A stretch of 59,775 bases of DNA, counting the filler, from Stramenopiles sp. TOSAG23-3 (Eukaryota): assembly GCA_900128585.1 (NCBI GenBank). It is 6 parts of 6 records of this genome, joined end to end, with 100 filler letters (N's around TTAATTAATTAA, not from the genome) between each part and the next. Parts side by side here need not be neighbours in the genome. Positions count along the whole stretch, not along the records: positions 35,987 to 53,798 come from LT642439.1; 5 more parts are not named here. One strand, written 5' to 3'. Below are positions 16,349 through 57,883 of this stretch, piece after piece. Every line of letters starts with the position of its first letter. Position 1 is the first letter of the stretch. A program made the translations under genes and the position numbers. Below the pieces are notes generated by a model. That model was not told where the DNA came from, ran no database searches, and saw only the letters and a list, made by a program, of their open reading frames with translations.

Positions 16349-16395
16349 NNNNNNNNNNNNNNNNNNNNNNNNNNNNNNNNNNNNNNNNNNNNNNN
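16349..16395. other. Assembly gap without linker
   Basis: Run of N with no TTAATTAATTAA insert, unlike the other gaps. Confidence 0.95.
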
Positions 16396-17904: not shown

Positions 17905-18004
17905 NNNNNNNNNNNNNNNNNNNNNNNNNNNNNNNNNNNNNNNNNNNNTTAATTAATTAANNNNNNNNNNNNNNNNNNNNNNNNNNNNNNNNNNNNNNNN
18001 NNNN
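17905..18004. other. Artificial contig-join spacer
   Basis: N44-TTAATTAATTAA-N44; the 12-mer has stops in all six frames. Confidence 0.95.
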
Positions 18005-35886: not shown

Positions 35887-35986
35887 NNNNNNNNNNNNNN
35901 NNNNNNNNNNNNNNNNNNNNNNNNNNNNNNTTAATTAATTAANNNNNNNNNNNNNNNNNNNNNNNNNNNNNNNNNNNNNNNNNNNN
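35887..35986. other. Artificial contig-join spacer
   Basis: N44-TTAATTAATTAA-N44. Confidence 0.95.
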
Positions 35987-35988
35987 AA

Positions 35989-37605
35989 GAAATATCGCCG
36001 CTAGTCGTGCAGCATGCAGATTCGCTTAACACGCGCTGTTTGGGAACAGTCATGAAATCGTTTGGAATCCTAAAATTCAACCCTGGCCCGAACCTAGTGG
36101 GGGTTCTCCTCCAGTCTGCCGAGAAGGACTTGTTCCGCTTCAAAGGCGACGAGCTGAGCAGCCTCATCACTGGAGTAGAGCACATATATTGCCACTCCAC
36201 CGACTCGATAGAGCCAGACAGCACGTACCATGACGACGTTTTTGACTTTGAGTTCGTCGACACCCTTGACTTGGTGCTTGAATCCAAGCTGGCCTCTTTG
36301 AGTCCAGGGGAGATAACGAGCATCCTTCAGGCGCTGTCAAAACTGAATCGCATCGGACACTTGTCCATGGAGTTGCTCGATAGCTACAGGGATGCCTTGC
36401 TGAATCCTGAAACCTTGAAGCGCTACGATGCAAAATCATTAAGCAGAGTGTTATGGTTGGCCGCGAAAGACAATTCTGGGTTTCCGCGTGATCAGCAGCT
36501 ATTAGAAACGATTACGATACATTTGCGGTCGGTCCTTTCGACCGCCGATGGAAGTGACCTGGCGACCATTCTGTGGGCTTTTCAACAGCTAGAATTTAAC
36601 CCTGGATCTCAATTCCTGGATGAGTTCTGCGTGTACAGTGGGGCCAAGCTGGCCAAAATGCAGCCAAGAGACTTTGCGACTGTTCTTTATTCTCTAGCAT
36701 CCATGAAGCGCAAATATGTACCCACGAAAACGTTCTTGTCCATGGTAAACCAATCGTTTGAAAAGAAGCTGAAACGATGCAACGGCCACTCTCTCTCAGT
36801 TGCCTTTCTCGGGATAACCCGCCTAGTTCCCCCAGACGACTTTGTTATGGACATATTTACGGAAAGAATAGAGACGCTCGTCAACGCTAACGCCTTTGGG
36901 TCGCAGGCTTTGATAATGATTCTGGTTTCTTATGAAAATTGGGGCGGGAACCCGGGAGAACACATACTTGGACTGATTGCGCAGGAAATCTTGTCCAACG
37001 CCGCGCTAACGCCGGTGTATTTGACCACTGTCTTGCGGACGTTTGCGAAGCTTGACTACTACCCGGGCGATAAAGAAATGGTAGAGCTTCTTGGTAAAGG
37101 TCTGCACGAGTGCAACCTGAAATCTTTTGATCCTGGCAGCCTTGTGAGGCTGGTGTCATCGTTTTCCATGCTCCACTTCTACCCAGGGGACAAGTTCATG
37201 CGCGAATTTCTAAACGTTATCGAAGTTCCAGAGGAAGATTTCGGGGAGGACGAAACTGTAGAACAATTTGGGGTCGGCTCAAACTTTGACATCAGTGAAA
37301 TGGGCATTGACTCAGATGATAGTATGCTGGATTACATTCAACAGTACGATAGATTGCATGAACGCTCGCAAGTATTTTTGGGGGACGAACTCGGTGGTGG
37401 TGCCTCCGCTCTTTCAATCAGGTGTTTCGGGGGCGACGAAGAGGACGATGAGGTCACATTTGATCAAGGTGGTCATGACAAACCTGCCATGCGAGCGGAG
37501 CAAAAGTTGATTGTAACCGAATCGTTAAGCAGTCTGATGCGGTTGAAAGAGATGATGAATGGGAGTGCAGGGCGTGGTCCGGACGATGCGTTTGCCCATT
37601 ATTGA
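35989..37605 (+). CDS. Helical-repeat (OPR/HPR/FASTK-like) protein, 5' truncated by gap
   Basis: ~37-38-aa repeats (LSPGEITSILQALSKL, DLATILWAFQQLEFNPG, MQPRDFATVLYSLASM, TVLRTFAKLDYYPG, LVSSFSMLHFYPG) typical of organellar RNA-binding repeat proteins. Confidence 0.75.
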   Translation, partial: EISPLVVQHADSLNTRCLGTVMKSFGILKFNPGPNLVGVLLQSAEKDLFRFKGDELSSLITGVEHIYCHSTDSIEPDSTYHDDVFDFEFVDTLDLVLESKLASLSPGEITSILQALSKLNRIGHLSMELLDSYRDALLNPETLKRYDAKSLSRVLWLAAKDNSGFPRDQQLLETITIHLRSVLSTADGSDLATILWAFQQLEFNPGSQFLDEFCVYSGAKLAKMQPRDFATVLYSLASMKRKYVPTKTFLSMVNQSFEKKLKRCNGHSLSVAFLGITRLVPPDDFVMDIFTERIETLVNANAFGSQALIMILVSYENWGGNPGEHILGLIAQEILSNAALTPVYLTTVLRTFAKLDYYPGDKEMVELLGKGLHECNLKSFDPGSLVRLVSSFSMLHFYPGDKFMREFLNVIEVPEEDFGEDETVEQFGVGSNFDISEMGIDSDDSMLDYIQQYDRLHERSQVFLGDELGGGASALSIRCFGGDEEDDEVTFDQGGHDKPAMRAEQKLIVTESLSSLMRLKEMMNGSAGRGPDDAFAHY

Positions 37606-37752
37606 TGGTTGCACACGCGCGCACATATAATTAATGTAAATAAAAATTGCTCACAACTTGTTCAAGATGCGCTCTGCAATGTTACGAGTATTTCTAATAA
37701 TGTCTTTAAATGTTCCACAGATCTAATTACCCCACGCGTATAGGGGCAAAGC

Positions 37753-40700
37753 TTACTTCGTGTACTTGTTTTTCCAATACCCTTTCTTATACCATGAGGC
37801 TCGATTCAAAGCTGGAGAGCGCCGTGACGTTGTGGAAAAGCTGGTTTGAGGAGACGGGGAAGGCACAAATCGGCTGCTTGTGCGGTGGAAAGACTGGTGT
37901 CCTGGGGCGGCTTTGCCGTAGCTCACATTCAAATCTGCCAGCACTCTGTGCGTTTTGGATGAGACATCGTTCGGGATTATATGTTCATTTGATGTTTGCA
38001 AAGAATTTTCCTGCTGGTCTATAACAACAGACCGATATATTGTGTCCGATTCGTTGCTCTTCCTCACTGTCGCAACCATTGAAGCCGCTGCTGCCGCTTG
38101 CGTTTTAAGCAAGCTCAGGTGTTGTTGCAACATATCAATTTGAAGGCTCTGGTCAACCCCAGAGTTTCCCAAGGACTGGTGGTTTGGGATACTGAAGTTC
38201 AAGTTGGCGGAACTTTCTGGGGCCGCAGGGGGGTTCGGCTTACTACGAAATCGAGATTCGGAAGCAACCGAAACGATTTTGGCTGTCGCTGTTGTTAGCT
38301 GTCGCTTGGCCTCTTCAAGTTCGGACTTTAATGTCATCACTTCTTTCTCTTTTACTTCTAGGTTCGCCGCTGACCGAGCATATTTGCGCTCAAATTCTAT
38401 TATTTCTCTATCTTTCTGTTTCAGGTCGTTGTTTGCGTTTTTCAAGTCGAACTTAAACTGGTCGCATGATTCGCGAAGGCTGGCCATTTGTTCGTCACAC
38501 TTTTGCTGCCATTCGACAGTGGTGTCTTGCGATGCTTCATTGGCAGCACGGCGCATAGCAGTTTCTAGCATCATTTTGAACTGGGCCTTGGTTTTCTCAA
38601 GTTTAAGACTCACCTCGTTCGAAAGTGTTTTAAATTTGTCTTTTTCGTCGGTCATGGCTTCCAGGCTGCGCTGCAGCTTGATGGTGCGTTCCTCGTTGGC
38701 GCTGTTGGCTAATTTTCGGCGATAAGTTTCGGCATCTTCTTGGGCTTTCAGGGCTGCTCGGCGTTGTTCGGAACACTCGGCCTGGTCTTCTGCCCGCAAA
38801 GCTTCTACAACCGCCAATCTCTCTGACAATTCTTGGTTCTTCCTTACCGTGGCGCTGCACTCTTCCTCTAATTCGAGCATGCGGGTCTTCTGTGCATGTT
38901 TGGAGTTGTCCGCCACTTCCGCGGCTTTCGCTGACATTAATTTGGCTTCTTCGATTTGTTGTCGAAGCTTCATTTGCTTTGCTTCGGCAACTCGTGCAGC
39001 GGTGCTCTTGTCTTGCATCGCTTTGTCAAGTTTCGCCTCATATTCTTTTCGTAGAACACTAACTTTTTCGTTCTCTACGTGTATGGAAATTTGCTTGTTC
39101 CGCCTCTCTCGCTCCTCTCCCTCTTCTTTAAGTGTTTCGATTTCTTTCATTAATTTTTCATTCTCGGTGGACAAAGCATTTGTTTTTTCGGCCGCGGCGG
39201 TGGCGTCTTGTTTTGCCTGAGTCAAATCCCGCTCGAGTTTTGATGTCCTCTGCTTGTTGGTAAACGTTGAGGTGCTGCTCTCTTCTATTACGCGTTCGAT
39301 TTCTGCTTGAAGGGCCGATTTTGCGTGCTTTAATGCATCTATTTTTGTTCGGTTGTTCTGCAAAGTCTCTTTTTGCGCATCGATTTCCTTCTTGAACGTT
39401 TCCGTTCGAGCCCTTTGGTTTTCCATGTTGCCAACCGCCTCTTTCTTCTCGCGTTCTGCTTGACGTGCCTTGGCGCTCTCCTCTTGCAAATTCTTTCTTA
39501 GGTCTTCGCACTCTTTCTCTGCTTCATTTGCTCGATGCTCGAACTGTTCGTTTTGAATTGAGCTGGTAGACAGTTTTTTCCGTTCCTCTCTCGCAGTCTT
39601 CAAATGCCTTCGAAGCTGCTCGATCTCGGCCTTCAAATGAGAACTGCCCTCGTCGGCTGCTTGGTGCAACTCTTTTTTCGCTTTTTCGAGTTTTTCTCGG
39701 AACCTTGATGAGTCCTCTTTTTCTCGCTTTAATTCGGATGACAATTCTGCCCTTTCACGAACCAGGGAGTCTCGCTCCGAGCGCACCTCGTCACGCTCAC
39801 GGCATACCCGCTCCATTTCTTTTCGCAAAGTTTCCGATTCGCCTGCAGATGCAGCATTGGTCGAAGCGGCGCTTTTGCTCCCTGCCCCTTTGGAAATGGT
39901 GGAGCCTATGGTTTTCCCATGACCCTTTTCGATTTTCTTCTTTTCTGCCAATTTCTTGCCTTCTTGATTTTGTACTTTCACTGACCCGAACAGAGGTATA
40001 TCGGAATCGTCCAACTCGGCCGATTTGTCGTGGTCTATGCTGTCATCGCCTTCCATGGCGTCGGCAATATCATCCATCCAGCTAGAGGTTTTGGGGGAGG
40101 TGGTTATTTTTGCTCCTAGTCCAGAACTACGCTTTGTCCTCTGTGCTCCTCTTTTGGGCATGAACTTTTCTGTCATACTATCAAGAATATCCCCGTCAAA
40201 GCCACCCCGCAAGGATGTCCCCAGGCCCTCGCTAACATTGTCCCGACTTCGTCTTGGTGACGCCGCAGCCCGAGCACGCTGCCTTTCCTGCTCGGCCTCC
40301 GCGCGTTTCTTTTCTTCCTCAAGCTTTGCTATTCGCTCTTTTTCTCTTTGGGCGGCTTTTTCTGCCGCAGCAAAGGCAATGGATTGCTCCCGTTCGCGCT
40401 TTTTTTCTTTCTGTATCCGAGCCTCTTCTCTTTCTCGGGAGCGCTTCTTTTCTTGGTCTTCCCGCTTCGCTTGCTCTTTGTGCTTCACAAGTTCGCTTTG
40501 AAATAGCTGTCGGTAGTGTTCGTCCAACGGATGCTCCCACATGCTTTCGTTCGTTTTTGTGTTGAAATGATAGGGTGTTCCATCGTCGCTGACGCCTTGC
40601 TCCCAATTTTCGGGCAACTGGGCTGTTAGTGCTTCCTCTGCAATCCACAACAGGTGCTCGTGTTCTTCAGGATCCATTCCTAAGAATCGTGCGTGCTCTA

Positions 40701-40962
40701 GTATTGCGGTCTTCATAAACTCGGGGTCCAAGACGCCATCGTCGGCCCCGTCGTCGTCTCCTGGAGGGGGAGGAACGTTCAGTTGAGTCGCCTCCTCAAA
40801 GTCATCATCAAAGCTATCATCAAAATCTTCAACAATGGTACCGTCCCCAGAACCTGCCCAATCATTGCTCTTTTTGTTGTTTCTACGCTCCTGCTTTCGT
40901 TTTTTCATTTCGTTAAATCTCTCCTCCGAGTTCATCTCCTCCCAGCTTGAAAACACTGACAT
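37753..40962 (-). CDS. CEP164-like WW-domain coiled-coil protein
   Basis: EHARFLGMDPEEHEHLLWIAEEALTAQLPENW...YHFNTKTNESMWEHPLDEHYRQL matches the CEP164-type helical+WW N-terminus, followed by a long coiled coil. Confidence 0.8.
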   Translation of the reverse strand: MSVFSSWEEMNSEERFNEMKKRKQERRNNKKSNDWAGSGDGTIVEDFDDSFDDDFEEATQLNVPPPPGDDDGADDGVLDPEFMKTAILEHARFLGMDPEEHEHLLWIAEEALTAQLPENWEQGVSDDGTPYHFNTKTNESMWEHPLDEHYRQLFQSELVKHKEQAKREDQEKKRSREREEARIQKEKKREREQSIAFAAAEKAAQREKERIAKLEEEKKRAEAEQERQRARAAASPRRSRDNVSEGLGTSLRGGFDGDILDSMTEKFMPKRGAQRTKRSSGLGAKITTSPKTSSWMDDIADAMEGDDSIDHDKSAELDDSDIPLFGSVKVQNQEGKKLAEKKKIEKGHGKTIGSTISKGAGSKSAASTNAASAGESETLRKEMERVCRERDEVRSERDSLVRERAELSSELKREKEDSSRFREKLEKAKKELHQAADEGSSHLKAEIEQLRRHLKTAREERKKLSTSSIQNEQFEHRANEAEKECEDLRKNLQEESAKARQAEREKKEAVGNMENQRARTETFKKEIDAQKETLQNNRTKIDALKHAKSALQAEIERVIEESSTSTFTNKQRTSKLERDLTQAKQDATAAAEKTNALSTENEKLMKEIETLKEEGEERERRNKQISIHVENEKVSVLRKEYEAKLDKAMQDKSTAARVAEAKQMKLRQQIEEAKLMSAKAAEVADNSKHAQKTRMLELEEECSATVRKNQELSERLAVVEALRAEDQAECSEQRRAALKAQEDAETYRRKLANSANEERTIKLQRSLEAMTDEKDKFKTLSNEVSLKLEKTKAQFKMMLETAMRRAANEASQDTTVEWQQKCDEQMASLRESCDQFKFDLKNANNDLKQKDREIIEFERKYARSAANLEVKEKEVMTLKSELEEAKRQLTTATAKIVSVASESRFRSKPNPPAAPESSANLNFSIPNHQSLGNSGVDQSLQIDMLQQHLSLLKTQAAAAASMVATVRKSNESDTIYRSVVIDQQENSLQTSNEHIIPNDVSSKTHRVLADLNVSYGKAAPGHQSFHRTSSRFVPSPSPQTSFSTTSRRSPALNRASWYKKGYWKNKYTK

Positions 40963-42065
40963 ATTGGTTACCTTTCGCTAAATACTATTGGGTGAACGAC
41001 AATACGTACGAACGGAACAAAAATGTCTTTGGTGTTGACACTAATCGTTATGCGATTGCTACCAACCAACAAAAGTTCAAATCGCATGAAAATAAATGTT
41101 CAATCGCTTTAAAGTATTGTCTTCTTCCCTTTCTTTTACTTTTGCGCAGAGCTTTTTTTGTTGCCCATTATTTTTTTCTATTATAAATATGAGTAGTAGT
41201 AGTAGGAGAAAGAATATATCATTCATCATTACCACTGATTCTCCTTACTACTAATTTTTTAACACGATCGATGAAGGTAGTACCGGTACTAGTATTAACT
41301 AGTTTATAACGTCTATGATGTGGTAGGTATACGAAGGTCTAGATTTTATTTTGTTATTCGTACTTATGGGTAAAGAAAGATTACGAATAATTAATATTAA
41401 TGCTGTATATATGTAATATTCACAACGTTCAGAAAAAATGGGAAAAAAAATAGTATTAAATAATATAGAAGTAGGTTGGTAGTCAGTCTATATAGTTGGA
41501 AATAGTACTTCTATTATAATTAGACTACATATATAAATAAAAACCCTGAAAGAATTTGGTAATGAATATCGTTAAGCGGTCGAAGTAAGTAGAACTATAG
41601 ATGGAATAGAACGATATAGTATTTTTACTATTTACGTAGTATGGTAAGGTAAGGTATGGTACTTTCCTTTGGAATCGGATGTCGTAGAATTACATCCGTT
41701 GCATTTGTTTGATCTCCAATGCTACAACCAGTTTTAAAAAATTGGTGTATGAGTTTTGCATTGTCATAGAGGCTGTGTGACCTCTTAATAAATACGAAGA
41801 TTGAAATACTGTGTGCATTTTGTACTAATGTTTGTAGTCCATTTATATAGGGAACAACAGGGACGGGAGGAGCTTGATGATTTTCATCATCGTCGTCGTC
41901 GTCGTCGCGCCGCCGTCTCGTAAAATTCCAACTCTTTCTTGTTGACTGAATTGCACAGCTTTGTGTATCATCCGGTAAGAAAGGAAGAAACGTTTTTTTC
42001 AAGCAAAATTGTCGCTTCATTCAGCAATCTCAAGTCCCTTTTGACTGTTTCCGCTGAAAAGAAAA

Positions 42066-45000
42066 ATGTCGGACGATGGCGATTCTGAAGACAGTGTTCC
42101 CCCTATAGTATTTCAGGTTGCGGAGAAGTATCGTAACCCCAAACTGGAAATAACTGATACAATAGAATGGAGCCCGGACCACGCCAAAATACTGTACCTT
42201 ATCTCTCTGTTTGCCAAACCCCCAGTAGAAGAGGGAGATGAGGAAGGTTGGATAAGATCGTTGCCTTTGTTGGTGCTGATGTACGAAGGAATTGTAAGCG
42301 GTACCTTTGAAGAGCCTGACTACGCCCCGTGTTGCAACATAGTGTCTCAAGACGGGCACACCCGTCGTGTTTGGATGAACGTTAGTCAAGAGGGGAAAGC
42401 GTTTATAGATGATCTAAGAGAAAAAACATTGTTGAACGGCTTAAAAATGATGACTGAGGATGGGCAACCCGTGACTTCGTTTCAGTGCAGTCTGTTCGGC
42501 TTGTCTCTCGTCGAGCAAATTCCAGAAGAGTTAAAAGCCCAGGTGGTTGCACTCGTCTACCCCACGGGGGTGGAAGGGGGCCCGAGGAAAATAAGGTTTG
42601 ATCCCGAAGAGGGATGTTTTTGGATGACTACAGACGGTGGTTATAATGAACAAAGTGAAATTTCGGAGTGCGAAGACATTTCGTACGTCAGTAGTCCATA
42701 TTTGCCAGAATGCCTGAGAGAAAACGATAGGCCGAACAACAGCAACAAACACCGAGCCCACGAAGTAGCCGACGGCGGAGGAAACGTTGCGGTGGACACT
42801 AGTGAAGCTGTGACGCTGTCCAACGTCCATGCAATGATTGCAGAATGGATACCTTTCGGGGCAAATCAAATTGTTGCGCTAAACGAGCGGCTGGGTGCGT
42901 TGGATCGGAACCAAGGAGGCTTTTTCACGAACCAGGTAGATGAGGACCCTACATCCACGAATTTCGATGTTCCTCCGGGGTTGACTAGCGTCAAGATTTT
43001 AGACTTTGACTTTGTCCGGTTCACTAATTTTGAAGCAGAGATAAATTACCCCAACGATGAAGGAATCATACAAATAGAAGAATTTGGTATGCATTTAGAC
43101 ATGGATGGAACGATTGTGTACGGAATGTTTATCGAGGCCATAGGCAATCGACTAGCGGACGACCTCAGTGTCGACGACCTAAGTAGGGTAATGGTCGACA
43201 TTCATCAAGATAGCAGTGAAATCATGGATGATATTATTAGTGCGCATCAAAAGGAATTGATGCAAACAGTATTTATGGGAGACAGTGACAACCGTCCAAA
43301 ATTTAATCTTTTGATGTGCGACGGGATCACACCAGCCCTGTCGGGGGAGTTTTTTATGGACCGAAGCGAGCGTGAGTACGAGATCAAACAAATTGTGGGA
43401 GATGTAGTTCACGGTACAATGGTGGGGGGCACAGACACTTTGATACTGGGGAGGGAGGGTATTGTGTACGCTGGCCCGCACGCAACAGAAACAGACAATT
43501 TATTGATTGCCAATGCCTTTATTGCAGGGAAGGAAGTGTTTCTGAGAGCGTACTTTATCCGCATGTTCATTTTAAATAATGAAATTGATACCATTCGTGA
43601 CCTAATCGCAACGTATCTGGATGACCCTCATAAAGTAGATGACTTTCGCACTCGTCTGTCTGAATCATCGTCAACAATTATCCAAATGACTGAGTTGCTT
43701 GGTTATTTAGAAGAATCCATTAGAACGGCGAAATTGCCACCGCGTGCTTCGGGGGGGCAACTGATGCTGGCGTACGACGCGTTAAACATTGAACACCAGT
43801 TCAGGGATTTAAGACTTAGGACGTTCGATTTGAGAAAACTGGTGGAAGGGGCAGGTGGAAAACTTGACATTTTGAGGCTCCAGGGCACATCCGTGAACAA
43901 AAGGTTGTTGGACGTTGTTGTGAAAGGAATGGACGTCAATTTCCAAGGGTTGGTGGCTGCGACTGCATCCGATGCACGTGCTGCCATTGCGAATGAGATC
44001 ATGAACATTGTCTTTGCAGGTAACATGATTTTTGATTTAATTGATCGTGTCGATGGAGACGATACACTAGGGTACGAGGGGGTAGACAGCGGGGGCGGTG
44101 GGGTCCACTGGATCCTAATGGTCTTCAGACCCATATACTCAGTCCCAGGGTTTTTTTTCGTAGTAAATGTAGGATGGTTTTTAATGATGACTTGGTTTCT
44201 GCAAACTTTCATGCGGTTCTTGATAGACAAAACGCTGAATGCCCGCACTATTCGCAAGATAATGTTCCTTAAGGTAAAACTTAAAAATGCAGTAGAGTAC
44301 GTAAGAACAAAGACTTTGATCAGCAGCGATACTGTGGCGTCAGATGATGGAATCTTTTGGAAAATTGCGTGGAAAGATGGTGATAAAGAATCGCATGCAC
44401 ATTGGGGCGGAGACCCCCCGCACATCGTTTGTGAAATTGACCTAGCAACTGGATTCATGATGCAAGTGAACATTAACTGGAACTATCAAACGCTTCCTTG
44501 GAATGCGGAAACTGTTGTGGGTAGATGGGTTGACGAATTGTGTAATTTCAACGTGTTCCATGATATGAACGATAACGTTCGTAGGAAGAAGAGCATTGCC
44601 TTGGCTGCACCATGGATGCCAAAGCATGGCACCGACCACGTAAACACCGAGTCGTACCAGTGGCGCAAAAGTTTGAAACCAGGTGACACCGTTGTCTTTG
44701 ATGCTATTGAAAGAAGAGAGAGTAAGATCATAAAGATTGAAGGCACAGAGGTCGTGGTGAAACCGACGGGTCCAAACTCGAACTTTGCATATAGGACAAA
44801 TTTGTTCAGCAAGCAAATTGTCCCAACAATTGACTACGAACACCCTGAAAAGCCGCTGACTGAGGAAGAAACGGAGCGTCTAAACAGTTTTCCGTTTAAT
44901 TTGAAAGCCGGCGATTTTCTGTTCTTTGATTTGCTGGAAGAGGAAACGCCAAGTCGTCTTGTTTCAAGAACTGGTACACACCTCTTGATAAAGCCGTGGT

Positions 45001-45371
45001 TTGTGGCTGGTCTCGAAAATAAGGGAAATGGGTCAATGGCCTACCATGTAGAAATTGGTGATGGTCGCATCCGCCCACCACCTGACGAGTTTGACCCAAA
45101 CAAAGTCTGGAAGCCACTGCCGAAAGAAGAACACCCCGACGAAATTAAGGCAAGGGGGCGATGGCCAAGAACCCTGAAACCAGGGGAATATGTCCTGTTT
45201 GATTGCTTGGGTTGGAAACCCAGCCGCGTGAGCTCAATCGACAACCACGGTGAAAAAGAGATGGTTGTTGTACCTATGGGATCCAAACATGGGTACCATG
45301 TAAAACTCGACTCGAAGCGGATCAAAAAGATTCCCAAAAACTTTAAACCGCCACTGCCCTCCACGTTTTAA
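42066..45371 (+). CDS. Uncharacterised membrane protein with two TM segments and three C-terminal beta-barrel-like repeats
   Basis: 1101-aa ORF: globular N-terminus, long helices, two hydrophobic segments (~aa 640-720) and three LK[P/A]G[D/E]xxxFD repeats. Confidence 0.8.
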   Translation: MSDDGDSEDSVPPIVFQVAEKYRNPKLEITDTIEWSPDHAKILYLISLFAKPPVEEGDEEGWIRSLPLLVLMYEGIVSGTFEEPDYAPCCNIVSQDGHTRRVWMNVSQEGKAFIDDLREKTLLNGLKMMTEDGQPVTSFQCSLFGLSLVEQIPEELKAQVVALVYPTGVEGGPRKIRFDPEEGCFWMTTDGGYNEQSEISECEDISYVSSPYLPECLRENDRPNNSNKHRAHEVADGGGNVAVDTSEAVTLSNVHAMIAEWIPFGANQIVALNERLGALDRNQGGFFTNQVDEDPTSTNFDVPPGLTSVKILDFDFVRFTNFEAEINYPNDEGIIQIEEFGMHLDMDGTIVYGMFIEAIGNRLADDLSVDDLSRVMVDIHQDSSEIMDDIISAHQKELMQTVFMGDSDNRPKFNLLMCDGITPALSGEFFMDRSEREYEIKQIVGDVVHGTMVGGTDTLILGREGIVYAGPHATETDNLLIANAFIAGKEVFLRAYFIRMFILNNEIDTIRDLIATYLDDPHKVDDFRTRLSESSSTIIQMTELLGYLEESIRTAKLPPRASGGQLMLAYDALNIEHQFRDLRLRTFDLRKLVEGAGGKLDILRLQGTSVNKRLLDVVVKGMDVNFQGLVAATASDARAAIANEIMNIVFAGNMIFDLIDRVDGDDTLGYEGVDSGGGGVHWILMVFRPIYSVPGFFFVVNVGWFLMMTWFLQTFMRFLIDKTLNARTIRKIMFLKVKLKNAVEYVRTKTLISSDTVASDDGIFWKIAWKDGDKESHAHWGGDPPHIVCEIDLATGFMMQVNINWNYQTLPWNAETVVGRWVDELCNFNVFHDMNDNVRRKKSIALAAPWMPKHGTDHVNTESYQWRKSLKPGDTVVFDAIERRESKIIKIEGTEVVVKPTGPNSNFAYRTNLFSKQIVPTIDYEHPEKPLTEEETERLNSFPFNLKAGDFLFFDLLEEETPSRLVSRTGTHLLIKPWFVAGLENKGNGSMAYHVEIGDGRIRPPPDEFDPNKVWKPLPKEEHPDEIKARGRWPRTLKPGEYVLFDCLGWKPSRVSSIDNHGEKEMVVVPMGSKHGYHVKLDSKRIKKIPKNFKPPLPSTF

Positions 45372-45675
45372 ATAGGTCATTAATTTGTATTAGTCTATCA
45401 GTTATGGTAAACAACTATAATAGTAATTCTTTAGCATTCATCAACACACCCCTCGCCGCCTGCTGTGCGCATATTAATAATTATGATTTATATACTTCTC
45501 TTCTTCTTCGCGTACGTACATACCAACCAACGAAGAAGGGAAGAGCTGTAGGGGGATTCGAGACAGTTCGGTCTACACTTTGCGAAATTGTATGCAGGCG
45601 TTTCCTAAATAAGATGTAATTTAAATATATCCTTTTTTTACGCGGTCATTGCGTCGTAATTTATTCCCTGTTATC

Positions 45676-46713
45676 ATGTTGAAGATAGTTGAAAGTGGAG
45701 TCGTTTTTGACGAACAAGGTCAGGCGCAAGTAGAGAGTGTCTGCTTCAATGAGACGGGGACCTTATTGTTGGCTTCTGTGTCTCAACTGTTCGTGAAGAA
45801 ATGGGTTGGCTGCCTTCGGGTGTTTAAGAACACTGGTGGGGATGGTGGTTGCACATTTACGCTGCAACAAAACGTAGAATTGCCTCATGGTAATGCAGCA
45901 TCAGCGGTGTTTTTGAAAAGTGCTAAAAAGAAAGAGCCAGAGATGGTAGTGTCGGCGAGCGACAGCGGCGAAATACACCTTTGGTCGTGCGACGAAGACG
46001 CTTGGAATTTTGCAGCAGTAAATATGCTTTCGGGACACGATGACATGATTTTAAATCTATGCACGGGTGGGCCAATGTCGCCGTCGTGCTTTTTCTCCGC
46101 GAGTCAAGACCGGACCGTTAAACTGTGGAGCGCTGCGCTGGGGAAGTGCGTTCGCACTTTTTCTGGGCACTCGGCTCCGTGCCTCTCTGTCTCTGCGTGT
46201 TTCAAAAGTACCCACCTAAGTGCCTCTGGTGGCATGGATAGATCGTTAATGCTGTGGGACTCTAGAGATTCTAACCCAATCGGTAAAATAAGTCTTGGGT
46301 CCGCTGTCCACTCCGTTGAATGGGACCAAGCCTATGATAATATTGTTGCATGCGGACAGGGAAATGGAGAAGTTTGCGTTTACGACATACGGACTCCTTT
46401 TCAGCCTTTATCTTCCACCAACTTGCATAAAGGAACCGTGGCTGCTTTGTCGTGCAGGACTACTACGAAAGATGAAAAGAACGGCAGTGAGTGTACCTCT
46501 ATGTTTGCATGTGGTGGAGATGACCTAAACTTGTCGGTTTTCTCTTCCCAGGTGCAGCAAGTTCCAGAAAGCGCCTCTGGGGGCTCTGCCCATTTATCGT
46601 CAACACACCGTGATTACATCCGATGCGTGGCGTGGTCTCCCGACGGAACAAGATTCGTCAGTGGGAGTTGGGATGGCTCTGCTAAAATTTTCGATGTAGA
46701 AGCGCACTGTTGA
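45676..46713 (+). CDS. WDR77: WD40 protein, methylosome protein 50-like
   Basis: ATG at 45676. LLLASVSQL..KKWVGCL, SASDSGEIHLW, GHDDMI, HRDYIRCVAWSP and SGSWDG parallel MEP50 motifs. Confidence 0.7.
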   Translation: MLKIVESGVVFDEQGQAQVESVCFNETGTLLLASVSQLFVKKWVGCLRVFKNTGGDGGCTFTLQQNVELPHGNAASAVFLKSAKKKEPEMVVSASDSGEIHLWSCDEDAWNFAAVNMLSGHDDMILNLCTGGPMSPSCFFSASQDRTVKLWSAALGKCVRTFSGHSAPCLSVSACFKSTHLSASGGMDRSLMLWDSRDSNPIGKISLGSAVHSVEWDQAYDNIVACGQGNGEVCVYDIRTPFQPLSSTNLHKGTVAALSCRTTTKDEKNGSECTSMFACGGDDLNLSVFSSQVQQVPESASGGSAHLSSTHRDYIRCVAWSPDGTRFVSGSWDGSAKIFDVEAHC

Positions 46714-47403
46714 AATAGGAGAATACAAGAGTATGCAAAGTACACACTCGTCCACATCGAACGCCCTGCATCTTAAACATGTTGTGCTAAATACTTTAAG
46801 TCCATAAATTATACGAATTTTTAGGAACAATTAGAATCGACCAATCCTGGTTCCTGGTACCTGTACCAGGTATGTATAATATTTTAATATTGTTGAGATT
46901 ATTTAAAGCGCACCACCACATCCTCCCTCCTCTCCTCTCCTCCTCTCCTCCGATTTTTTCTTCTTCTATCTTTTTTTCTTTTTTCGGGTCGTCGGTCGTC
47001 GGTTCGTACCGTAGTTTAGGTCAGTCCAACTACATACCAAGGTATCTTCTCGTAATAAGAATTATATAGTTAATCAATTATTATAATACTGTCGTACCAG
47101 GCAAAACACAACCCTAATCCTAACCATATAAATAAAAACAAGTCAGTCGCGTCAGTTTTGAGTTTTTTTACTGATATTATACTAACTATACCAATAATAC
47201 GAAAGCTAGGGCCCGAACGGTCCATCGTTGGCTTTGGCCATCGTTGTCCCTTTGATATATACATCAGTTATAGATTTAATTCAGTTATAGGTTTAATACG
47301 GTGGCTTATGTTTTTATATTGTAAAAAAGAAACTATTTAGCGTGAGCGCTTCTTTAATTAACCCACGAAGGATAGAAGAAATTGACGGTAAAGGCATAAA
47401 GAA

Positions 47404-48498
47404 ATGGCTGTGACAAGTGAACAAGCAAAGGCGTATTTGGACTCCCTCGCAAAGCCCCCCGGCTCGCTTGGACTTCTAGAGGAGTGGGCAGCGAAACTTT
47501 GCGTTGTACAGAATACAATGAGACCCCAATCGGGTCCGATGTCAACGCTAGTATTTTGCGGGGATCATGGTGTGAAAAAAGAAAACGCTGGCATATCCCC
47601 GTTTCCCCCAGTGATTTCTCAAGTGGTTTTTCGAGCACTGGCAAATGGGGAGTCCGCGACAGGGACGCTTTCCAGCGCTGTCGGGTGCCACCTGACAATT
47701 ATTGATTGCGGCTTAGATGGGGACGTGTCCGACGTCGGAAAATCTACTTTGCCAAAACATATTTCCGTTGTGCACAAGAAAGTGAACGCAGGTACATCGA
47801 ATATACTTACTGGGCCAGCGATGTCCTCCCAACAGCTTTTGGACGCTATGGCCGTAGGAGCCAAGTGCGTGCAAGACGAGAACAAGAAAAGGGGAAGTTT
47901 GGTAATAGCGGTTGGTGAAGTAGGTATTGGCAACACGACAGTCGCTGCTGCTCTGCTATCTGCTGTTACAGGTTCAAGTGCCCAGGATTGTTGCGGTCGA
48001 GGCACAGGGCTTGATGAGGCAGGTTTGGCCCATAAAATAGCAACGGTAAAGGACGCGTGCGAACAACATATTCCCAATTTTAGTAAAATCGAAGACCGCC
48101 CGGAACGTGCGATGGAAATTTTGCGTTCCCTCGGTGGATTTGAAATTGCAGCGATGGTAGGTGCCTACATTGAAGCGAACAAGTCGGGCATTCTAACAGT
48201 AGTCGATGGCTTTATCAGTGCCGTTGCAGCACTGCTTGCAGTGCAAATACAACCTCTGTGCTCAACCAACATGGTTTTTGCGACTGGTTTGGAAGAGGAG
48301 CCGAGAGCCCCCGTAGGTGGGCGCATTTTATGGGAAGCCCTTGGTAAGCCTCGTTCTGCGCTTTCCATGAATCTTTGCCTCGGTGAGACGAGCGCAGCAA
48401 CCCTGGCTTTGCCTCTTATTCGCGCGGCTGCACGAATAGTAACTTCGATGGGGACTTTGGAACAAGTTCAAAGGTTGATTTTGCCAACACAGGAATAA
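47404..48498 (+). CDS. cobT: Nicotinate-nucleotide--dimethylbenzimidazole phosphoribosyltransferase
   Basis: AKPPGSLGLLE, FCGDHGV, GEVGIGNTT, GRGTG, GGFEIAAMVG, VVDGFI and LCLGETS with the catalytic Glu retained. Confidence 0.95.
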   Translation: MAVTSEQAKAYLDSLAKPPGSLGLLEEWAAKLCVVQNTMRPQSGPMSTLVFCGDHGVKKENAGISPFPPVISQVVFRALANGESATGTLSSAVGCHLTIIDCGLDGDVSDVGKSTLPKHISVVHKKVNAGTSNILTGPAMSSQQLLDAMAVGAKCVQDENKKRGSLVIAVGEVGIGNTTVAAALLSAVTGSSAQDCCGRGTGLDEAGLAHKIATVKDACEQHIPNFSKIEDRPERAMEILRSLGGFEIAAMVGAYIEANKSGILTVVDGFISAVAALLAVQIQPLCSTNMVFATGLEEEPRAPVGGRILWEALGKPRSALSMNLCLGETSAATLALPLIRAAARIVTSMGTLEQVQRLILPTQE

Positions 48499-48649
48499 TA
48501 AGTATTAGTGCCTGTGTATAACATACTACGCGTATATAAACTTTTGTTCATTTTTTTAAAAGTATTGATGCCTGTTACACTCTCTAAAATATTTTGATTG
48601 GAGTGTCTCATAAATTTGATAGGACATATGATAGGGAAGAGTGAGCTCT

Positions 48650-49761
48650 TCAACGCTTTGCAAAATACCCAAGCACTTTTGGCAAGGAAAACACAGCAAA
48701 GAGGCGGCCAAATGCATAGAGGTCTGCCCCGTGAAACTGCCCAGATATAGACATATAAATGGCCACTTCAGTCATGCAAATTGTTGCACCAAGAAAGTCG
48801 CCAATGACCCCCCCGATGATTGCCGTACCATAAAAACCGGAAATAACGGTGCACACACTGAACGTCAAGATGGCTCGAAAAGCCGCATCCTGCGGCAAAA
48901 ATAATAGTGAAATTACAGAGGCAGAGACAACTGCAAAGACCACCCGGAACAAACCAAGAATGCGCTTCGACTCTCCAAACCAGTTGTAAAAGTCCCCCTT
49001 CGCATCTTCGTCATCGGTTACGTACTTGCAAGCATAGACCAGTGGTGCGGCCGTAGCCCGACTAAGAGACTGAGAAACCACAATGGCAGAGGCCACGTTG
49101 CTTATCCCAAAAAACTCTGTCACCACAGGTGTCACAGGCTGCGCTACGCTCCCAATGATGGCAATGGAGGCAATTTTCGCCACCATCCAAATCGATGCAC
49201 CCTTAGAAAGGAGGGAAGAAAAAAAGCGTTAGTACGAGCAAGGAAGGGTGAAACAAGAGACAGCAGACTTACAATAGTCGCATACGAGCCATTCCTGGAG
49301 TCTCGCATGATTTTCAAAATCTGGGCTTTCGACCATCCTCCACCAAAGGCGTCCAGAGTATCACAGAGGCCATCCTCGTGAAAGCACCCGGTTAGCCACA
49401 GAGTTCCCCCGCACGAGACTGCAGCGGCAATCATGGGGGTCCAAATTCCAGCGGCCGCATCGTATATAACTGCTTGCCAAGCGCCGATGAGTGATCCAAT
49501 CAAAGGAAAATACGCCATGCCGCGGAGCAAGTGACCAGGATGGTGATCGCACCAGCCTGGACAGGGAAGCCGTGTTAGGAACATAACCCCCGACAGAAAC
49601 GCTCGCGTCTCATCGCGTGGTTTTGCTTCGAATTCTACCAGTGGTGTGCGCACAGCAGTCCCCGTCCCTCGACTTGCTACCTCTTCATTCGTCAAAACTC
49701 CCCGTTTCCCTTTGACTTTCGGTGACTTTTTCGAACGCCCTTTTGACGCACTCCTTGCCAT
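48650..49761 (-). CDS. cobS: Adenosylcobinamide-GDP ribazoletransferase (cobalamin synthase); two exons 49761-49273 and 49201-48650, 346 aa
   Basis: FLTRLP, YFPLIG, LTGCFHEDGLCDTLDAFGGG, IMRDSRNGSYATI|GASIWMVAK, SLSR, IGGVIGDFLGA. Splicing joins two track ORFs in frame and restores the family's DSR-to-K spacing. Confidence 0.93.
49202..49272 (-). other. Spliceosomal intron in cobS (71 nt)
   Basis: Donor GTAAGT at 49272, branch TACTAAC at 49234-49228, polypyrimidine tract, acceptor AG at 49203-49202; phase 0. Confidence 0.92.
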
Positions 49762-50175
49762 TCTTTTTTCTGAAAAAATAAATTGGATGAAAGAGTTGTC
49801 TTTGAATTTCTAAATGATCTCCGCCGTTCTTAAACCTTTTTGCAATGTCTAAAAAGTTGTCTCGTGCTCCTACAAACTGTTTGCATTTGATTCAGATTTT
49901 AAAATTTACTTGAGTGGTGAAGACATTTCCCAGAAGATCTTGTTGTCAATTGATTGGATGCTAATAACCGAACCCTCCCTATCCTATATAATAAATTTTT
50001 TTTGTACTAGTACGTAGTATTATTACTGTAATAAAGATTGAATTCTCTCTCTTCTTTTACCTTCATTATCGTATTTATATGTTAAATTTACAATCCTGGC
50101 CGCTATGAGATACGGTAAGCAGAGCCTTTAAAGTCGTCTAGTCGTCTAGTATGTTTCTACAATTTCGTCCTTTGT

Positions 50176-53100
50176 TTAGAGGGTGACCTTTTCTTTTTCA
50201 TACTCGTTTATTGTTCTGCTGCTTACGGACTGAAAATTGTTTTTTCGGGACACATCCGAAGACTGGCGACGACTTTCAGTAGAAATATTAATGCTAGCCC
50301 TGCGATTTTTGCTCACAGCCCTTGCTGCTCTTGTTAGTACATTTTCCATTTTTTCCAAGTCTGGTGTGCTCATTCTGTTTTTGAACTTCTTCGAGTTGCC
50401 GGCGCCAGAAACATGTTGCCTAGCCAACTCGATTGTGTCCGTGATGGTTTTATGGGACGAGGCAGTAGCAACTGAGGCGCGCCTTGGCTCAGATGATGTG
50501 GTTGTCCCTTTCCTTTCGTGTTCATACTTTGAAGTATTGATTTTCATTTTCGAGGCCATTTCGGTCAAAACTTGGAGTATTTTTTGCTGGTTCTTCTGTA
50601 ACATTGCCACGCTCGATACTATGTTTTCTGCTAAAACTGTGTCGTCGCCACCATCGCTGCTGACCTTCCGATCAATGGTGTTTGGATAATCCAGCCCCGA
50701 AATTTTCACGCTTTCTCCAAAAGCGTGTGCAATTACACGGTGGGAGAAACTTTTTCTCTCGGCTTCATTCTTAAATACCAATTCACAGTGAGAATAATAC
50801 CCGGGCGCGAATGTTAGGTACAAGCGCCTCTTGCTAGACTTAGAAATGTCTATGCGGTGCAATTTCTTCAGCAGAAGCACTCGACGCAACTTATAGTTGG
50901 AGTAGAACGATCTGATCAGAGCCTTTTCGGCGTCAACGATCATGATTCTCACCTGTTTTAACCCATACTTGTTTATCTTTTGCACTGTGAATTCGTTGTA
51001 CCCCGTTTTCACGTCCATGACACCCAATTGCGAAAATTCCATGCGCTTTTCACCCTTCAGCATAAATACACTGTAACACTTCCTGAAAGTAGTAATAATT
51101 TTTCGAGCCAAACATTTTGCAGGATCCAAATGGTCACAGCGTCCCGCCATGTTTGCTTTTCGAAATAAGAGGCAAAGGTCGGAAATTCCCATGTAGATGT
51201 TTTTCTGCAAACCGTGTTTTTCCTCAAAAAATGCCCGAATATACTTGTATAAATTCTTTACTCCAACTACTGTTCTTGCCGTTAGAATTTCGTCCGACGC
51301 TTGTTTTACAACCATCAAAAAATTGATTTCGGCTATCCAATGTTGAACTTGTTCGTTGCCGTGATCGTCGATTCCCACAGTACGATTTTGTTGAGACCTC
51401 CTCTTTCTCAAACACGGGCAACAGAATATCGCGTACATGCACGAATGCAAACAGCCCTTCCCCAGCAATTGAAATTTTAACCGGTAAAACAAGACTACGT
51501 AATGCTTTTGCAGGTCTAACAATGCATTTGGTAAATCTTTCTGCCAAGCATCTTTTGAAGACGCTGCGTGTGACACACTGTAGCCATCCGTGAGAATGGC
51601 GATGAACATATTCATCATTATCATGTACATCAGGAATAGCCATATCCAGTAAAAAATACCGGTAAAGTAAGGAGCAACTTGAGCCATAGAATCATACTCA
51701 TATCCTCCCCCGATAAAGCCCATCATTTCTCGAAAACTTGTCCACAAACTCATGAATGCTGGCAGATGAGGCCCGTACATGTAATGAGCTGCTTGGGCAA
51801 ACCCCAACAAAAATACAATAACCATAATCATGTATATTGCTAAATCCTTGGAAGCGGTTCGCAAAGTGTTTTGCAGGATGGCAGTGCGTCTGCTAAATTT
51901 TGAAAACTGCAAGGTCAAGATTACGTTAAAAACAAAACAGAAGCAGGCTGCCTGTGTGGACGTGTAGAGACCATCAAAAGGTTCAAATATTTCAAAAAAC
52001 TCATCGCTCGCTGCGGATGGCAAGTCCCCCAGGGTTACACCTGTCCTAACGAGCTCGTAATGCCATTGGTACGATCGGTGGAGAAGGAAGGTGGTAATGA
52101 AGGCAATTTCCAACAGAGTTTTCCATTTCATTAAATACTTTAATTTTGAGCTGGCGTGAAGGAACTTTTTAGAAACACTCCTCAGTCGCGACAATATTAT
52201 TCCAAAAGTTACCAGTTCTAAGAGATACCGTGTCCACTGGTCGGCAGAGAATCCACCCAACGGGTAGGTCCGAAGCCTGTACGAGCACGTGATGTAACCG
52301 TTCTCGAAAAATTCGCAGTAGAACTGTGATGCCGTCATTATTTTAGTTGATTCGCTCAACAGGTTATGCTCTACGAATACACCCCGAGTAGCTTTGTCGA
52401 TCCACTTGTCGCCTTTCAGTTCTTGAATTAGAGAGGTTGCGGTTGCGGAGGTCGCATTGTTGGCAGGAAGCAGCCGCGACGGAGGAGGTATGTAGACCGC
52501 AAACCCGCCCGTCCCGTACACACGTTCTAGAAATGTCCTAGAAAATTCACTCCTACCACGGGCGGAGGGCATGGTTGCTTTTGTGGAGAATCCATATTTG
52601 TTCTTCCCAGTAACGTTCTTGTAGTACGAGCTCCCGAAAGTCCCTCTAGGTCCAAATGATTCTTTCGATGCCGTTCGAACGTCATATTCGGCAAAGCATG
52701 TCCCAGTGTTTTTGAAACGGCACTGGACCTGCGGCATGCGAAACTGTCGGAGTCGAAGTGGCCCAATCATGCGAAGATGCCCGCTGATTAAGTCTTCTGG
52801 ACCGTAGGGGTTTCCTTTGTATATACCATTTACCACTGGGCCCTCGAGCCATGAATAAAACTCGTCTAGGGAGTGCACATCTTGGAAATTCTTTTTATAG
52901 GTTGCGGAAGGAAACTCTTCGTCGTAAAATAACTCCAAAACGACCTGATCTTGTTCGTGGGCGTCCTGGACTCTCAAAAACATGCCCATGCTCAAGGTCA
53001 ATATTATAAAGAAGACAACGAGCGTGAAGCAATTGTTAATCATATCCAGGCGCTGGATCTGATATAGGGCTTTTAAAAACGGGCGAATGGGCAAATAATC

Positions 53101-53415
53101 TTCTTCGTCCAAGCTGTCCATCCCAATAAGTTGTATTTTTTCGTGCTTCAAGTCCGGGTTCAACTCTTGCGCTAGTTTCCACAACTGGGCAGTTCCTTCG
53201 TCAGGCCCTTCGTCGGTAGCAGCCATAAGCTGGGCAATTCGTCGCCTTTCCGATTTCATTGCTCTTCCTAGGTCGGATTTAGTTTTAGAAATGTGCCTAG
53301 CTACGCTCTTGCTAACCTGCATCACAGAATCCCTGGCACGTCGAGCGTTGCTGCGACTACGGCCTCTCTTGAGTTGGCGAACTGGGCCCATTTCCACCCT
53401 CACGGCGTCCGTCAT
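50176..53415 (-). CDS. Polycystin-2 (PKD2/TRPP)-like cation channel with C-terminal PH-like domain
   Basis: FYSWLEGP, GPLRLRQFR, LKGDKWIDKATRGVFVE (TOP domain), six TMs, pore GFAQAAHYMYG...F, S6 MMNMFIAILTDGY, distal VQKINKYGLKQVRIM...FKNEAERKSF. Confidence 0.9.
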   Translation of the reverse strand: MTDAVRVEMGPVRQLKRGRSRSNARRARDSVMQVSKSVARHISKTKSDLGRAMKSERRRIAQLMAATDEGPDEGTAQLWKLAQELNPDLKHEKIQLIGMDSLDEEDYLPIRPFLKALYQIQRLDMINNCFTLVVFFIILTLSMGMFLRVQDAHEQDQVVLELFYDEEFPSATYKKNFQDVHSLDEFYSWLEGPVVNGIYKGNPYGPEDLISGHLRMIGPLRLRQFRMPQVQCRFKNTGTCFAEYDVRTASKESFGPRGTFGSSYYKNVTGKNKYGFSTKATMPSARGRSEFSRTFLERVYGTGGFAVYIPPPSRLLPANNATSATATSLIQELKGDKWIDKATRGVFVEHNLLSESTKIMTASQFYCEFFENGYITCSYRLRTYPLGGFSADQWTRYLLELVTFGIILSRLRSVSKKFLHASSKLKYLMKWKTLLEIAFITTFLLHRSYQWHYELVRTGVTLGDLPSAASDEFFEIFEPFDGLYTSTQAACFCFVFNVILTLQFSKFSRRTAILQNTLRTASKDLAIYMIMVIVFLLGFAQAAHYMYGPHLPAFMSLWTSFREMMGFIGGGYEYDSMAQVAPYFTGIFYWIWLFLMYMIMMNMFIAILTDGYSVSHAASSKDAWQKDLPNALLDLQKHYVVLFYRLKFQLLGKGCLHSCMYAIFCCPCLRKRRSQQNRTVGIDDHGNEQVQHWIAEINFLMVVKQASDEILTARTVVGVKNLYKYIRAFFEEKHGLQKNIYMGISDLCLLFRKANMAGRCDHLDPAKCLARKIITTFRKCYSVFMLKGEKRMEFSQLGVMDVKTGYNEFTVQKINKYGLKQVRIMIVDAEKALIRSFYSNYKLRRVLLLKKLHRIDISKSSKRRLYLTFAPGYYSHCELVFKNEAERKSFSHRVIAHAFGESVKISGLDYPNTIDRKVSSDGGDDTVLAENIVSSVAMLQKNQQKILQVLTEMASKMKINTSKYEHERKGTTTSSEPRRASVATASSHKTITDTIELARQHVSGAGNSKKFKNRMSTPDLEKMENVLTRAARAVSKNRRASINISTESRRQSSDVSRKNNFQSVSSRTINEYEKEKVTL

Positions 53416-53798
53416 GTTGAAGCTCTCTGCTGCCCGCTGAAGAACCTCGGACTTACAATTTACTAGTCAGGCGCTGCTTGCAGTCTGCTTCCGGCTGTTG
53501 GTATGCAACACAATATGAAACCGGGTTCCAAAAAGGACCTTTTCGCTTTCTTTTATCAACTCCCAATCTTCATACAATGCCTCAACTGCTCGTATATCTC
53601 ATTGTTGAAATTTTCTTATATTATTTTCCCCTGCTATGGCATGTGCCACGTTTTATTATTAATAAACTCTGTATAAAGGTCCTCCTCGCCTCTGCTGGAT
53701 CGGATCCGGCAGTGTAATACCAGGTAAATAACAGGTAGGTACCTGCACGGGTTTTTTACCTGTTATTAAATACCTGTACAAACTTTCTAGAAGAAGAA

Positions 53799-53898
53799 NN
53801 NNNNNNNNNNNNNNNNNNNNNNNNNNNNNNNNNNNNNNNNNNTTAATTAATTAANNNNNNNNNNNNNNNNNNNNNNNNNNNNNNNNNNNNNNNNNNNN
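53799..53898. other. Artificial contig-join spacer
   Basis: N44-TTAATTAATTAA-N44. Confidence 0.95.
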
Positions 53899-55791: not shown

Positions 55792-55891
55792 NNNNNNNNN
55801 NNNNNNNNNNNNNNNNNNNNNNNNNNNNNNNNNNNTTAATTAATTAANNNNNNNNNNNNNNNNNNNNNNNNNNNNNNNNNNNNNNNNNNNN
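55792..55891. other. Artificial contig-join spacer
   Basis: N44-TTAATTAATTAA-N44. Confidence 0.95.
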
Positions 55892-57783: not shown

Positions 57784-57883
57784 NNNNNNNNNNNNNNNNN
57801 NNNNNNNNNNNNNNNNNNNNNNNNNNNTTAATTAATTAANNNNNNNNNNNNNNNNNNNNNNNNNNNNNNNNNNNNNNNNNNNN
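57784..57883. other. Artificial contig-join spacer
   Basis: N44-TTAATTAATTAA-N44. Confidence 0.95.

Follow-up and report, generated by a model that had tools for sequence, protein, structure and literature searches.

An expressed cobT-cobS gene pair in the uncultured marine protist Stramenopiles sp. TOSAG23-3, and recurrent linkage of the two genes in eukaryotes

The stretch analyzed in this study, hereafter the window, comprises 59,775 nucleotides (filler included) of Stramenopiles sp. TOSAG23-3 (assembly GCA_900128585.1), joined from six parts of six records. Positions 47404-49761, in the part taken from LT642439.1, carry homologues of the bacterial cobamide genes cobT and cobS. The earlier note on this DNA, made from the sequence alone, described an intact convergent pair with stop codons 151 bp apart on one uninterrupted contig. 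The open reading frames (ORFs) and the sequence confirmed the convergent arrangement and the spacing. The contig is also as described, since N runs occur only at its flanks (35943-35986 and 53799-53842) and 35987-53798 between them is gap-free. The cobT gene is a single ORF with exactly the coordinates reported, whereas cobS is not one intact frame; it consists of two exons separated by a 71-nt intron. The features of the pair are as follows.

47404..48498, plus strand: cobT coding sequence, single ORF of 364 aa without intron, predicted nicotinate-nucleotide:base phosphoribosyltransferase
48499..48649, no strand: spacer between the cobT and cobS stop codons, 151 bp, GC 0.31, which must contain both 3' ends
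48650..49201, minus strand: cobS exon 2, 183 codons plus stop
49202..49272, minus strand: cobS intron, 71 nt, phase 0, with 5' GTAAGT, a TACTAAC branch-site motif and terminal AG
49273..49761, minus strand: cobS exon 1, 163 codons, carrying an N-terminal extension of about 55 aa
49762..49818, minus strand: cobS 5' untranslated region, at least 57 nt, to the end of an RNA contig from run X15

The product of cobT was assigned to the CobT family by Pfam and by comparison with solved structures. It matched Pfam DBI_PRT (PF02277) with an E value of 1.3e-91 and 307.8 bits (cut-off 22.6) over profile positions 9-326 of 329. In addition, it aligned end to end with solved CobT structures, namely 1j33 from Thermus (E 1.7e-48) and 1d0s from Salmonella (E 8e-40). 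The phosphate-binding GIGNTT loop and the LGE motif both aligned with those of Thermus CobT 1j33, and residues G174, G176, N177, T178, T179, G327 and E328 were invariant across 35 eukaryotic sequences. We take the LGE motif to hold the catalytic glutamate. The protein has no N-terminal presequence and is therefore probably cytosolic.

The cobS gene spans 49761-48650 on the minus strand and appeared in the ORF listing as a pair of ORFs that overlap but differ in frame (49144-49761 and 48650-49186). The two exons join in frame once the 71-nt intron is removed. Each exon matched Pfam CobS (PF02654; cut-off 23.2): exon 1 from residue 59 over profile positions 2-108 of 207 (101.8 bits), and exon 2 over positions 105-206 of 207 (30.6 bits). 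The motifs TGCFHEDG and D-x-x-D-x-x-GGGW were invariant in 32 aligned sequences including exon 1 of the window. On these matches we assigned the product to the CobS family. No solved structure related to CobS was found by sequence search. A crude hydropathy scan placed three segments of CobS above threshold, but two were also flagged in the soluble CobT.

Residues 1-55 of CobS (49597-49761) form an N-terminal extension that is common to eukaryotic CobS proteins, contains invariant residues and is lacking in bacterial CobS. Bacterial matches to the window protein started at about residue 49, eukaryotic ones at about residues 1-25. The extension might serve for CobT docking. It carries an RGTG-type motif and the invariant residues R31 and E51. 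Many eukaryotic CobS proteins also have MAPNNAL at the start and a short K-E-C tail at the end; the window protein and its three closest relatives have neither. We considered an old intron common to the window cobS and its relatives and dropped the idea, since the intron positions in seven relatives (L005, L009, L011, L012, L014, L034 and L072) differ from that in the window.

To follow the locus in RNA and DNA, we aligned four public runs (X10, X15, X16 and X19) to positions 47300-49900 as assembled contigs. A metatranscriptome contig from X15 (1008 nt) extends along cobS between 49818 and 48740, with exactly 71 nt left out between 49200 and 49272. The ends of the skipped stretch are CT..AC on the plus strand, which is GT..AG on the cobS strand. 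The cobS intron is therefore real and spliced. The RNA contigs on cobT covered 47586-47881, 47926-48350 (oligo-dT library) and 48090-48361; the oligo-dT library is X19. Both genes had RNA contigs in runs X15 and X16, although such contigs yield neither expression levels nor transcript ends. Stretches without an RNA contig, such as the spacer and the first 180 bases of cobT, are uninformative on expression. At the DNA level, a 594-nt contig from X10, a marine metagenome of another study, spans 48245-48838 and so joins the 3' ends of both genes across the spacer; it differs by one letter. An index search with 47300-49900 gave shares of at least 0.78 in DNA runs of seven other studies, which are marine or seawater metagenomes or coded organisms, X10 alone being checked by alignment. 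This suggests that the source organism is widespread in the sea.

We considered bacterial contamination, or a chimeric join within a eukaryotic scaffold, as the source of the pair. Both families are bacterial in origin, cobT-cobS adjacency is the bacterial rule (59 of 80 genomes), and N gaps occur elsewhere in the scaffold. Against this, the cobS intron is of the spliceosomal type and is removed in RNA, the junction is bridged by a metagenome contig from another study, and the stretch from 35987 to 53798 has no N gap. The convergent orientation was found in 0 of 80 bacterial genomes, and both proteins fall into eukaryotic clades. Composition is native as well: the GC contents of the two genes (0.51 and 0.52), their GC3 values (0.46 and 0.51) and their codon usage lie within the spread of 11 neighboring genes. 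The nearest genes and one further gene on the same gap-free stretch are eukaryotic.

45649-46713, plus strand: WD40 protein, neighbor of the pair
50176-53415, minus strand: polycystin-channel protein, neighbor of the pair
37753-40962, minus strand: WW-domain protein, on the same gap-free stretch

Because of the spliced intron, the junction-bridging DNA contig, the oligo-dT contigs on cobT, the eukaryotic neighbors on a gap-free stretch and the native composition, we conclude that this is a genuine, expressed nuclear pair and not a bacterial insert. An artefact of either kind is hardly credible. The earlier note had named a chimeric insert and a lack of expression as findings that would refute it; both tests thus came out in favor of the locus.

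We next compared both proteins with their relatives. The best match of CobT other than itself was 58-61% identical and came from a sequence without species name. The named eukaryotic matches were Chrysochromulina (55%), Pelagomonas (51%), Emiliania and Calcidiscus, followed by Nannochloropsis and Pyropia (35-36%); bacterial matches were 36-40% identical. Exon 1 of CobS was much better conserved than CobT. Sequences without species name reached 82-84%, and the named matches were Teleaulax amphioxeia (76%), Prorocentrum (65%) and Diacronema lutheri (62%), with further matches in green and brown algae, Hondaea and Aphanomyces. The nearest bacterial CobS proteins by identity belonged to Gemmatimonadota and Bacteroidota (49-55% over exon 1). 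We also tried to place the host by its proteasome alpha subunit. Relatives without species name were 80-86% identical, and the named ones, ochrophytes and chlorophytes alike, only 54-58%, which gave no placement.

The bacterial rows for the trees were taken from 80 genome loci picked by CobS motifs and from the protein matches. In the CobS tree (IQ-TREE, LG+C20, 73 rows), 43 eukaryote-type rows were split from 30 bacterial rows with an SH-aLRT of 99. The window grouped with three sequences without species name (support 100), and this group was nested with Emiliania and Teleaulax (95) and then with Prorocentrum (97). Diacronema CobS fell into the same eukaryotic clade. In the CobT tree (IQ-TREE, 77 rows), the 30 bacterial rows formed one side of a branch (SH-aLRT 98), and the window lay in a clade with haptophytes and Pelagomonas (support 100). 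FastTree on 194 and 199 rows gave the same separation of bacteria and eukaryotes. The two window proteins thus stand next to sequences of haptophytes, cryptophytes, dinoflagellates and pelagophytes. Both trees fit one origin of each gene in eukaryotes.

To see whether the linkage of the two genes is peculiar to the window, we scanned metagenome contigs of the JGI with the CobS alignment and located both genes on each of 80 loci. The arrangements were as follows.

Tail-to-tail, like the window: L015, L016, L018, L019 and L034 (5 of 80 metagenome loci)
Head-to-head: L042 (1 of 80)
CobS then CobT on one strand with a 313-454-nt link (fused type): L017, L020, L021, L024, L028, L033, L036, L040, L043, L072 and L079 (11 of 80)
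Bacterial order, cobT then cobS: 29 of 80
cobS only: 34 of 80, most of them too short to judge

Linked forms thus occurred in 17 of the 80 loci, all eukaryote-type. The stop-to-stop spacers of the tail-to-tail contigs were 63 bp (L034), 139 bp (L019) and 306 bp (L015), and the neighbors on these three contigs were eukaryotic, such as tubulin chaperone D, N-terminal glutamine amidase and EGF/PAN proteins. The CobT proteins of L015, L016, L018 and L019 were 68-72% identical to that of Nannochloropsis oceanica. In the head-to-head locus (L042, 5909-8234), the start codons are 295 bp apart, and a bidirectional promoter is possibly shared.

Fusion of the two genes was found in proteins as well. Both domains were present in 28 of 105 long CobS relatives. 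The fused proteins numbered 45, 40 in the order CobS-CobT and five in the order CobT-CobS, the latter including four Aphanomyces species. In the Atlas, the cluster that holds the CobS-CobT fusion is made up of Eukaryota (100%), and Bacillariophyta are its commonest members (score 0.85); this serves only as a lead. In the Aphanomyces fusions (P0216, P0218, P0219 and P0220), the CobT part is truncated and extremely divergent (branch of about 3.8 in the CobT tree) and may be degenerate. Another set of eukaryotic contigs, L023 (9449-11035) with L022, L026 and L027, has CobS nested in the fused CobS-CobT clade with an N-terminal extension of about 195 aa. A CobT domain is lacking there, and no cobT lies within 9.5 kb, which looks like secondary loss or separation. 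From these surveys, pairing or fusion of cobS and cobT is widespread in public eukaryotic sequence.

The bacterial pattern was different. In 59 of 80 bacterial genomes cobS immediately followed cobT on the same strand (median gap 36 bp), and neither a convergent pair nor the order cobS then cobT was found in any of the 80. At three bacterial loci sampled, cobU stood before cobT-cobS and a His_Phos_1 (cobC-type) gene after it.

The adjacency could be the product of a chance rearrangement without functional or historical meaning. Genes in the window are densely packed (151-1103 bp between genes around the pair), so that any neighbor is close; linkage was absent in at least six eukaryote-type contigs, and the contigs of the closest relatives are too short to show the arrangement. 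These contigs end 67-928 bp past cobS, except L011, and are uninformative on a cobT downstream. No flanking genes common to the window and the closest CobS relatives (L001, L002, L003, L005, L011 and L012) were found. On the other hand, the tail-to-tail arrangement recurs on five other eukaryotic contigs from separate parts of the CobS tree. An approximately unbiased (AU) test on this tree rejected the four convergent rows as one clade (p 1e-7, the group being named after the tree had been seen). Head-to-head and fused forms exist too. Moreover, two named genes should become adjacent by chance in a genome of thousands of genes about once in several thousand per lineage, an estimate that was reasoned and not computed. 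Chance alone is therefore very unlikely in our judgment. In its adjacency the pair resembles a eukaryotic metabolic gene cluster: two consecutive steps lie 151 bp apart, and their adjacency extends beyond one lineage; two genes are the minimum for such a cluster.

A different account is that the linkage arose several times independently, because co-regulation, co-inheritance or substrate channelling was selected for, and does not descend from one transferred operon fragment. Four arrangements exist (tail-to-tail, head-to-head, CobS-CobT fusion and CobT-CobS fusion), only the CobT-CobS fusions keep the order and strand of the sampled bacteria, and the convergent lineages are not one clade. However, eukaryotic CobS and eukaryotic CobT each part from the sampled bacteria at a single branch with good support, which fits one joint arrival. 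In the CobT tree, the clade of the window is sister (SH-aLRT 89) to the clade that holds the other convergent pairs. It also seems improbable, as far as can be reasoned, that the same two genes were brought together anew several times. We consider repeated origin possible but rather unlikely.

The likely role of the pair follows from its families and from published work on algae. CobT would move the phosphoribose of nicotinate mononucleotide to a free base, for example dimethylbenzimidazole (DMB), giving alpha-ribazole phosphate. CobS, whose family comprises polytopic membrane enzymes, would then join the activated base to a corrinoid. By analogy with the algal systems, the two together may provide an imported corrinoid with a usable lower ligand when DMB is present, which would be remodelling or salvage and not synthesis of the corrin ring. 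The link between eukaryotic COBT/COBS and pseudocobalamin remodelling has already been published (Helliwell 2016, PMC4850488; 10.64898/2026.08.07.738727; available text of both). A scattered distribution of COBT/COBS, a possible bacterial origin, and non-algal matches in Aphanomyces and Sphaeroforma have been published as well. According to the available text of 10.64898/2026.08.07.738727, a knock-out shows that COBT is needed for growth of Chlamydomonas on pseudocobalamin plus DMB. The earlier note had proposed a candidate vitamin B12 remodelling module. Its family assignments were right and the proteins group with the algal COBT/COBS tied to remodelling, so that this interpretation is partly supported.

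The pair may instead serve another end, such as salvage of incomplete corrinoids or the supply of alpha-ribazole for use or exchange. A 2026 preprint, whose available text covers the CobT route from DMB, deals with alpha-ribazole production by a diatom. Among algae, COBT occurs more often than COBS, which may be dispensable (10.64898/2026.08.07.738727, available text); a ligand-removing enzyme was not seen in the window. Remodelling is nevertheless favored by the dependence of Chlamydomonas on COBT described above. It is also favored by the retention of CobS with CobT and its fusion to it, which suggests that the activated base is handed to a corrinoid. In addition, cobinamide salvage needs a CobU-type enzyme, and none was seen in the window. 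Another end of this kind is accordingly unlikely.

Taken together, we favor a native nuclear pair for nucleotide-loop assembly of cobamides, serving remodelling or salvage, with a linkage derived from bacterial operon adjacency. We give this explanation as a whole a probability of about 0.72. Most likely, the linkage goes back to a bacterial operon of the cobU-cobT-cobS-cobC type, in which cobT and cobS are neighbors. It would have been kept, rearranged or fused because the two steps form one unit that is gained or lost together. The fusions support this point by Rosetta-stone logic, under which the two enzymes would act as a unit. The data show the gene structure, the splicing, the occurrence in RNA libraries, the family membership, the eukaryotic position in the trees and the recurring linkage, whereas we infer the enzyme activities, the identity of the substrate, the way in which the old lower ligand is removed and the reason for the genes staying together.

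Several observations weigh against this explanation. First, the bacterial rows were chosen by likeness to the eukaryotic CobS motif and the trees have no outgroup; the trees are therefore compatible with a single origin and a common donor but name no donor. Second, the linkage is not universal: L011, L022, L023, L026, L037 and L038 are eukaryote-type and have no cobT over 2.2-9.5 kb downstream of cobS (L023 is confirmed as eukaryotic by RPC4 and SBDS genes), and the Emiliania CobS and CobT records lie on contigs that differ in length. Third, the RNA evidence consists of contigs, among which the spliced cobS contig is the only proof of RNA origin. Fourth, the sequence of CobT does not reveal base specificity. 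A COBS knock-out phenotype was not obtainable in Chlamydomonas (10.64898/2026.08.07.738727, available text), and a remover of the adenine nucleotide loop of the CbiZ or CbiR type is not known from most algae, according to the available text of PMC4850488. Finally, no cobU-type, cobC-type or other cob-neighborhood genes were found in the window, to which the search was confined.

The queries of this search were the ORFs of 114 bacterial and bacterial-type cob neighborhoods, including cobU and cobC-type genes, and they matched only cobT, cobS and one transketolase-like gene in the window. The absence of cobC and cobU from the window, as given in the earlier note, thus holds. Genes of the CbiZ, CbiB and CbiR types were not detected in the window with these queries, CbiR not being specifically among them. 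Nor did the window contain a COBC-type phosphatase, METH or MCM, or a corrinoid uptake protein. A transketolase-like gene (21088-23277, plus strand) encodes 729 aa with weak transketolase/DXP-synthase domain matches (E 1e-7 to 1e-20), too weak for a DXS call and hence uninformative on a plastid.

A bolder version of this history can be formulated. The two genes could be a cassette that entered eukaryotes once as bacterial operon neighbors, stayed together in tail-to-tail, head-to-head or fused form (with either domain first) and moved between distant lineages as a unit. In this protist, whose proteasome subunit has no close match in a named alga, it would enable a grazer to make usable cobalamin from the pseudocobalamin of cyanobacterial prey. 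We regard this version as unlikely. If true, transfer of the cassette as a unit would explain the patchy occurrence of the remodelling ability.

Organisms that convert cyanobacterial pseudocobalamin to cobalamin shape the marine supply of vitamin B12, and with this locus an uncultured marine protist that is widely detected joins the likely remodellers. The repeated neighboring or fused state provides comparative evidence that COBS works with COBT in eukaryotes, a cooperation that genetics does not yet settle because no COBS knock-out phenotype has been obtained. The linkage pattern also offers a handle on how the trait spread. The survey of metagenome contigs and the 45 fused proteins bear out the view that the linkage is more than a one-off. 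The locus had nevertheless been presented as special, which overstates the case: eukaryotic COBT/COBS are already published and the pairing is widespread, so that the locus is ordinary for the field. The earlier note had also held that its idea would fail if the adjacency were both widespread and already described. Widespread it is in public sequence, but no paper describing the pairing was found. In the literature searched, partly available as text, we found no description of the order, adjacency or fusion of eukaryotic cobS and cobT; supplementary tables (such as those of Helliwell 2016) may bear on this point. The recurrent eukaryotic linkage is a useful added comparative point and not a first-order surprise.

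The rest of the window contains further eukaryotic genes, namely those for a FAST-like protein, a proteasome alpha subunit, Rab, 14-3-3, Hop2 and a RING-BRCT protein. The WD40 gene is directly preceded by an uninterrupted ORF of 1101 aa (42066-45371, plus strand) with no Pfam match at E 0.01. An Rfam scan of the whole window returned nothing at gathering scores, and a repeat search around the pair found short, weak repeats only. N-gap sites are located at 16349-16395, 17905-18004, 35887-35986, 53799-53898, 55792-55891 and 57784-57883. Five of the six consist of two 44-N runs with 12 real bases between them, and the site at 16349-16395 is a single 47-N run. An odd regularity of this kind suggests that scaffolding or masking, and not biology, produced it.

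Finally, we compared the window with known systems. The algal COBT/COBS of Chlamydomonas reinhardtii and Pavlova (Diacronema) lutheri are, like the window genes, nuclear homologues of bacterial CobT and CobS, and a role in lower-ligand remodelling has been proposed for them (PMC4850488, available text). The host differs, being an uncultured marine protist whose named proteasome homologues are only 54-58% identical. The window genes are tail-to-tail, whereas gene order, linkage and fusion are not mentioned for the published algae in the available text. Bacterial cobU-cobT-cobS-cobC operons, as in Salmonella enterica (CobT 1d0s/1jh8), share the Pfam families and the adjacency of cobT and cobS with the window. 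Unlike these operons, the window has convergent genes, an intron in cobS, a eukaryote-only extension, and no cobU or cobC nearby.

Closer to the window in kind are the eukaryotic fusions, namely the CobS-CobT proteins of about 770-890 aa, probably from diatoms, and the CobT-CobS proteins of Aphanomyces (544-585 aa), all of which couple the two activities physically within a eukaryote. Their CobS parts carry the eukaryotic N-terminal extension and fall inside the eukaryotic CobS clade, and their CobT parts lie on the eukaryotic side of the split. The fusions are one polypeptide, whereas the window has two genes on opposite strands. The five tail-to-tail loci have a window-like arrangement and a short spacer but sit on distant branches of the eukaryotic CobS tree. 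Their flanks differ from those of the window, with tubulin chaperone D and a geranylgeranyl-reductase-like gene in L015 and L019, and FtsJ and N-terminal glutamine amidase in L034. In bacteria, CbiZ- or CbiR-dependent remodelling (Rhodobacter sphaeroides and Akkermansia) and CobS-dependent remodelling in Vibrio cholerae lead to the same outcome, in that a complete cobamide has its lower ligand exchanged. CobS is needed for the V. cholerae route, as cited in the available text of 10.64898/2026.08.07.738727.

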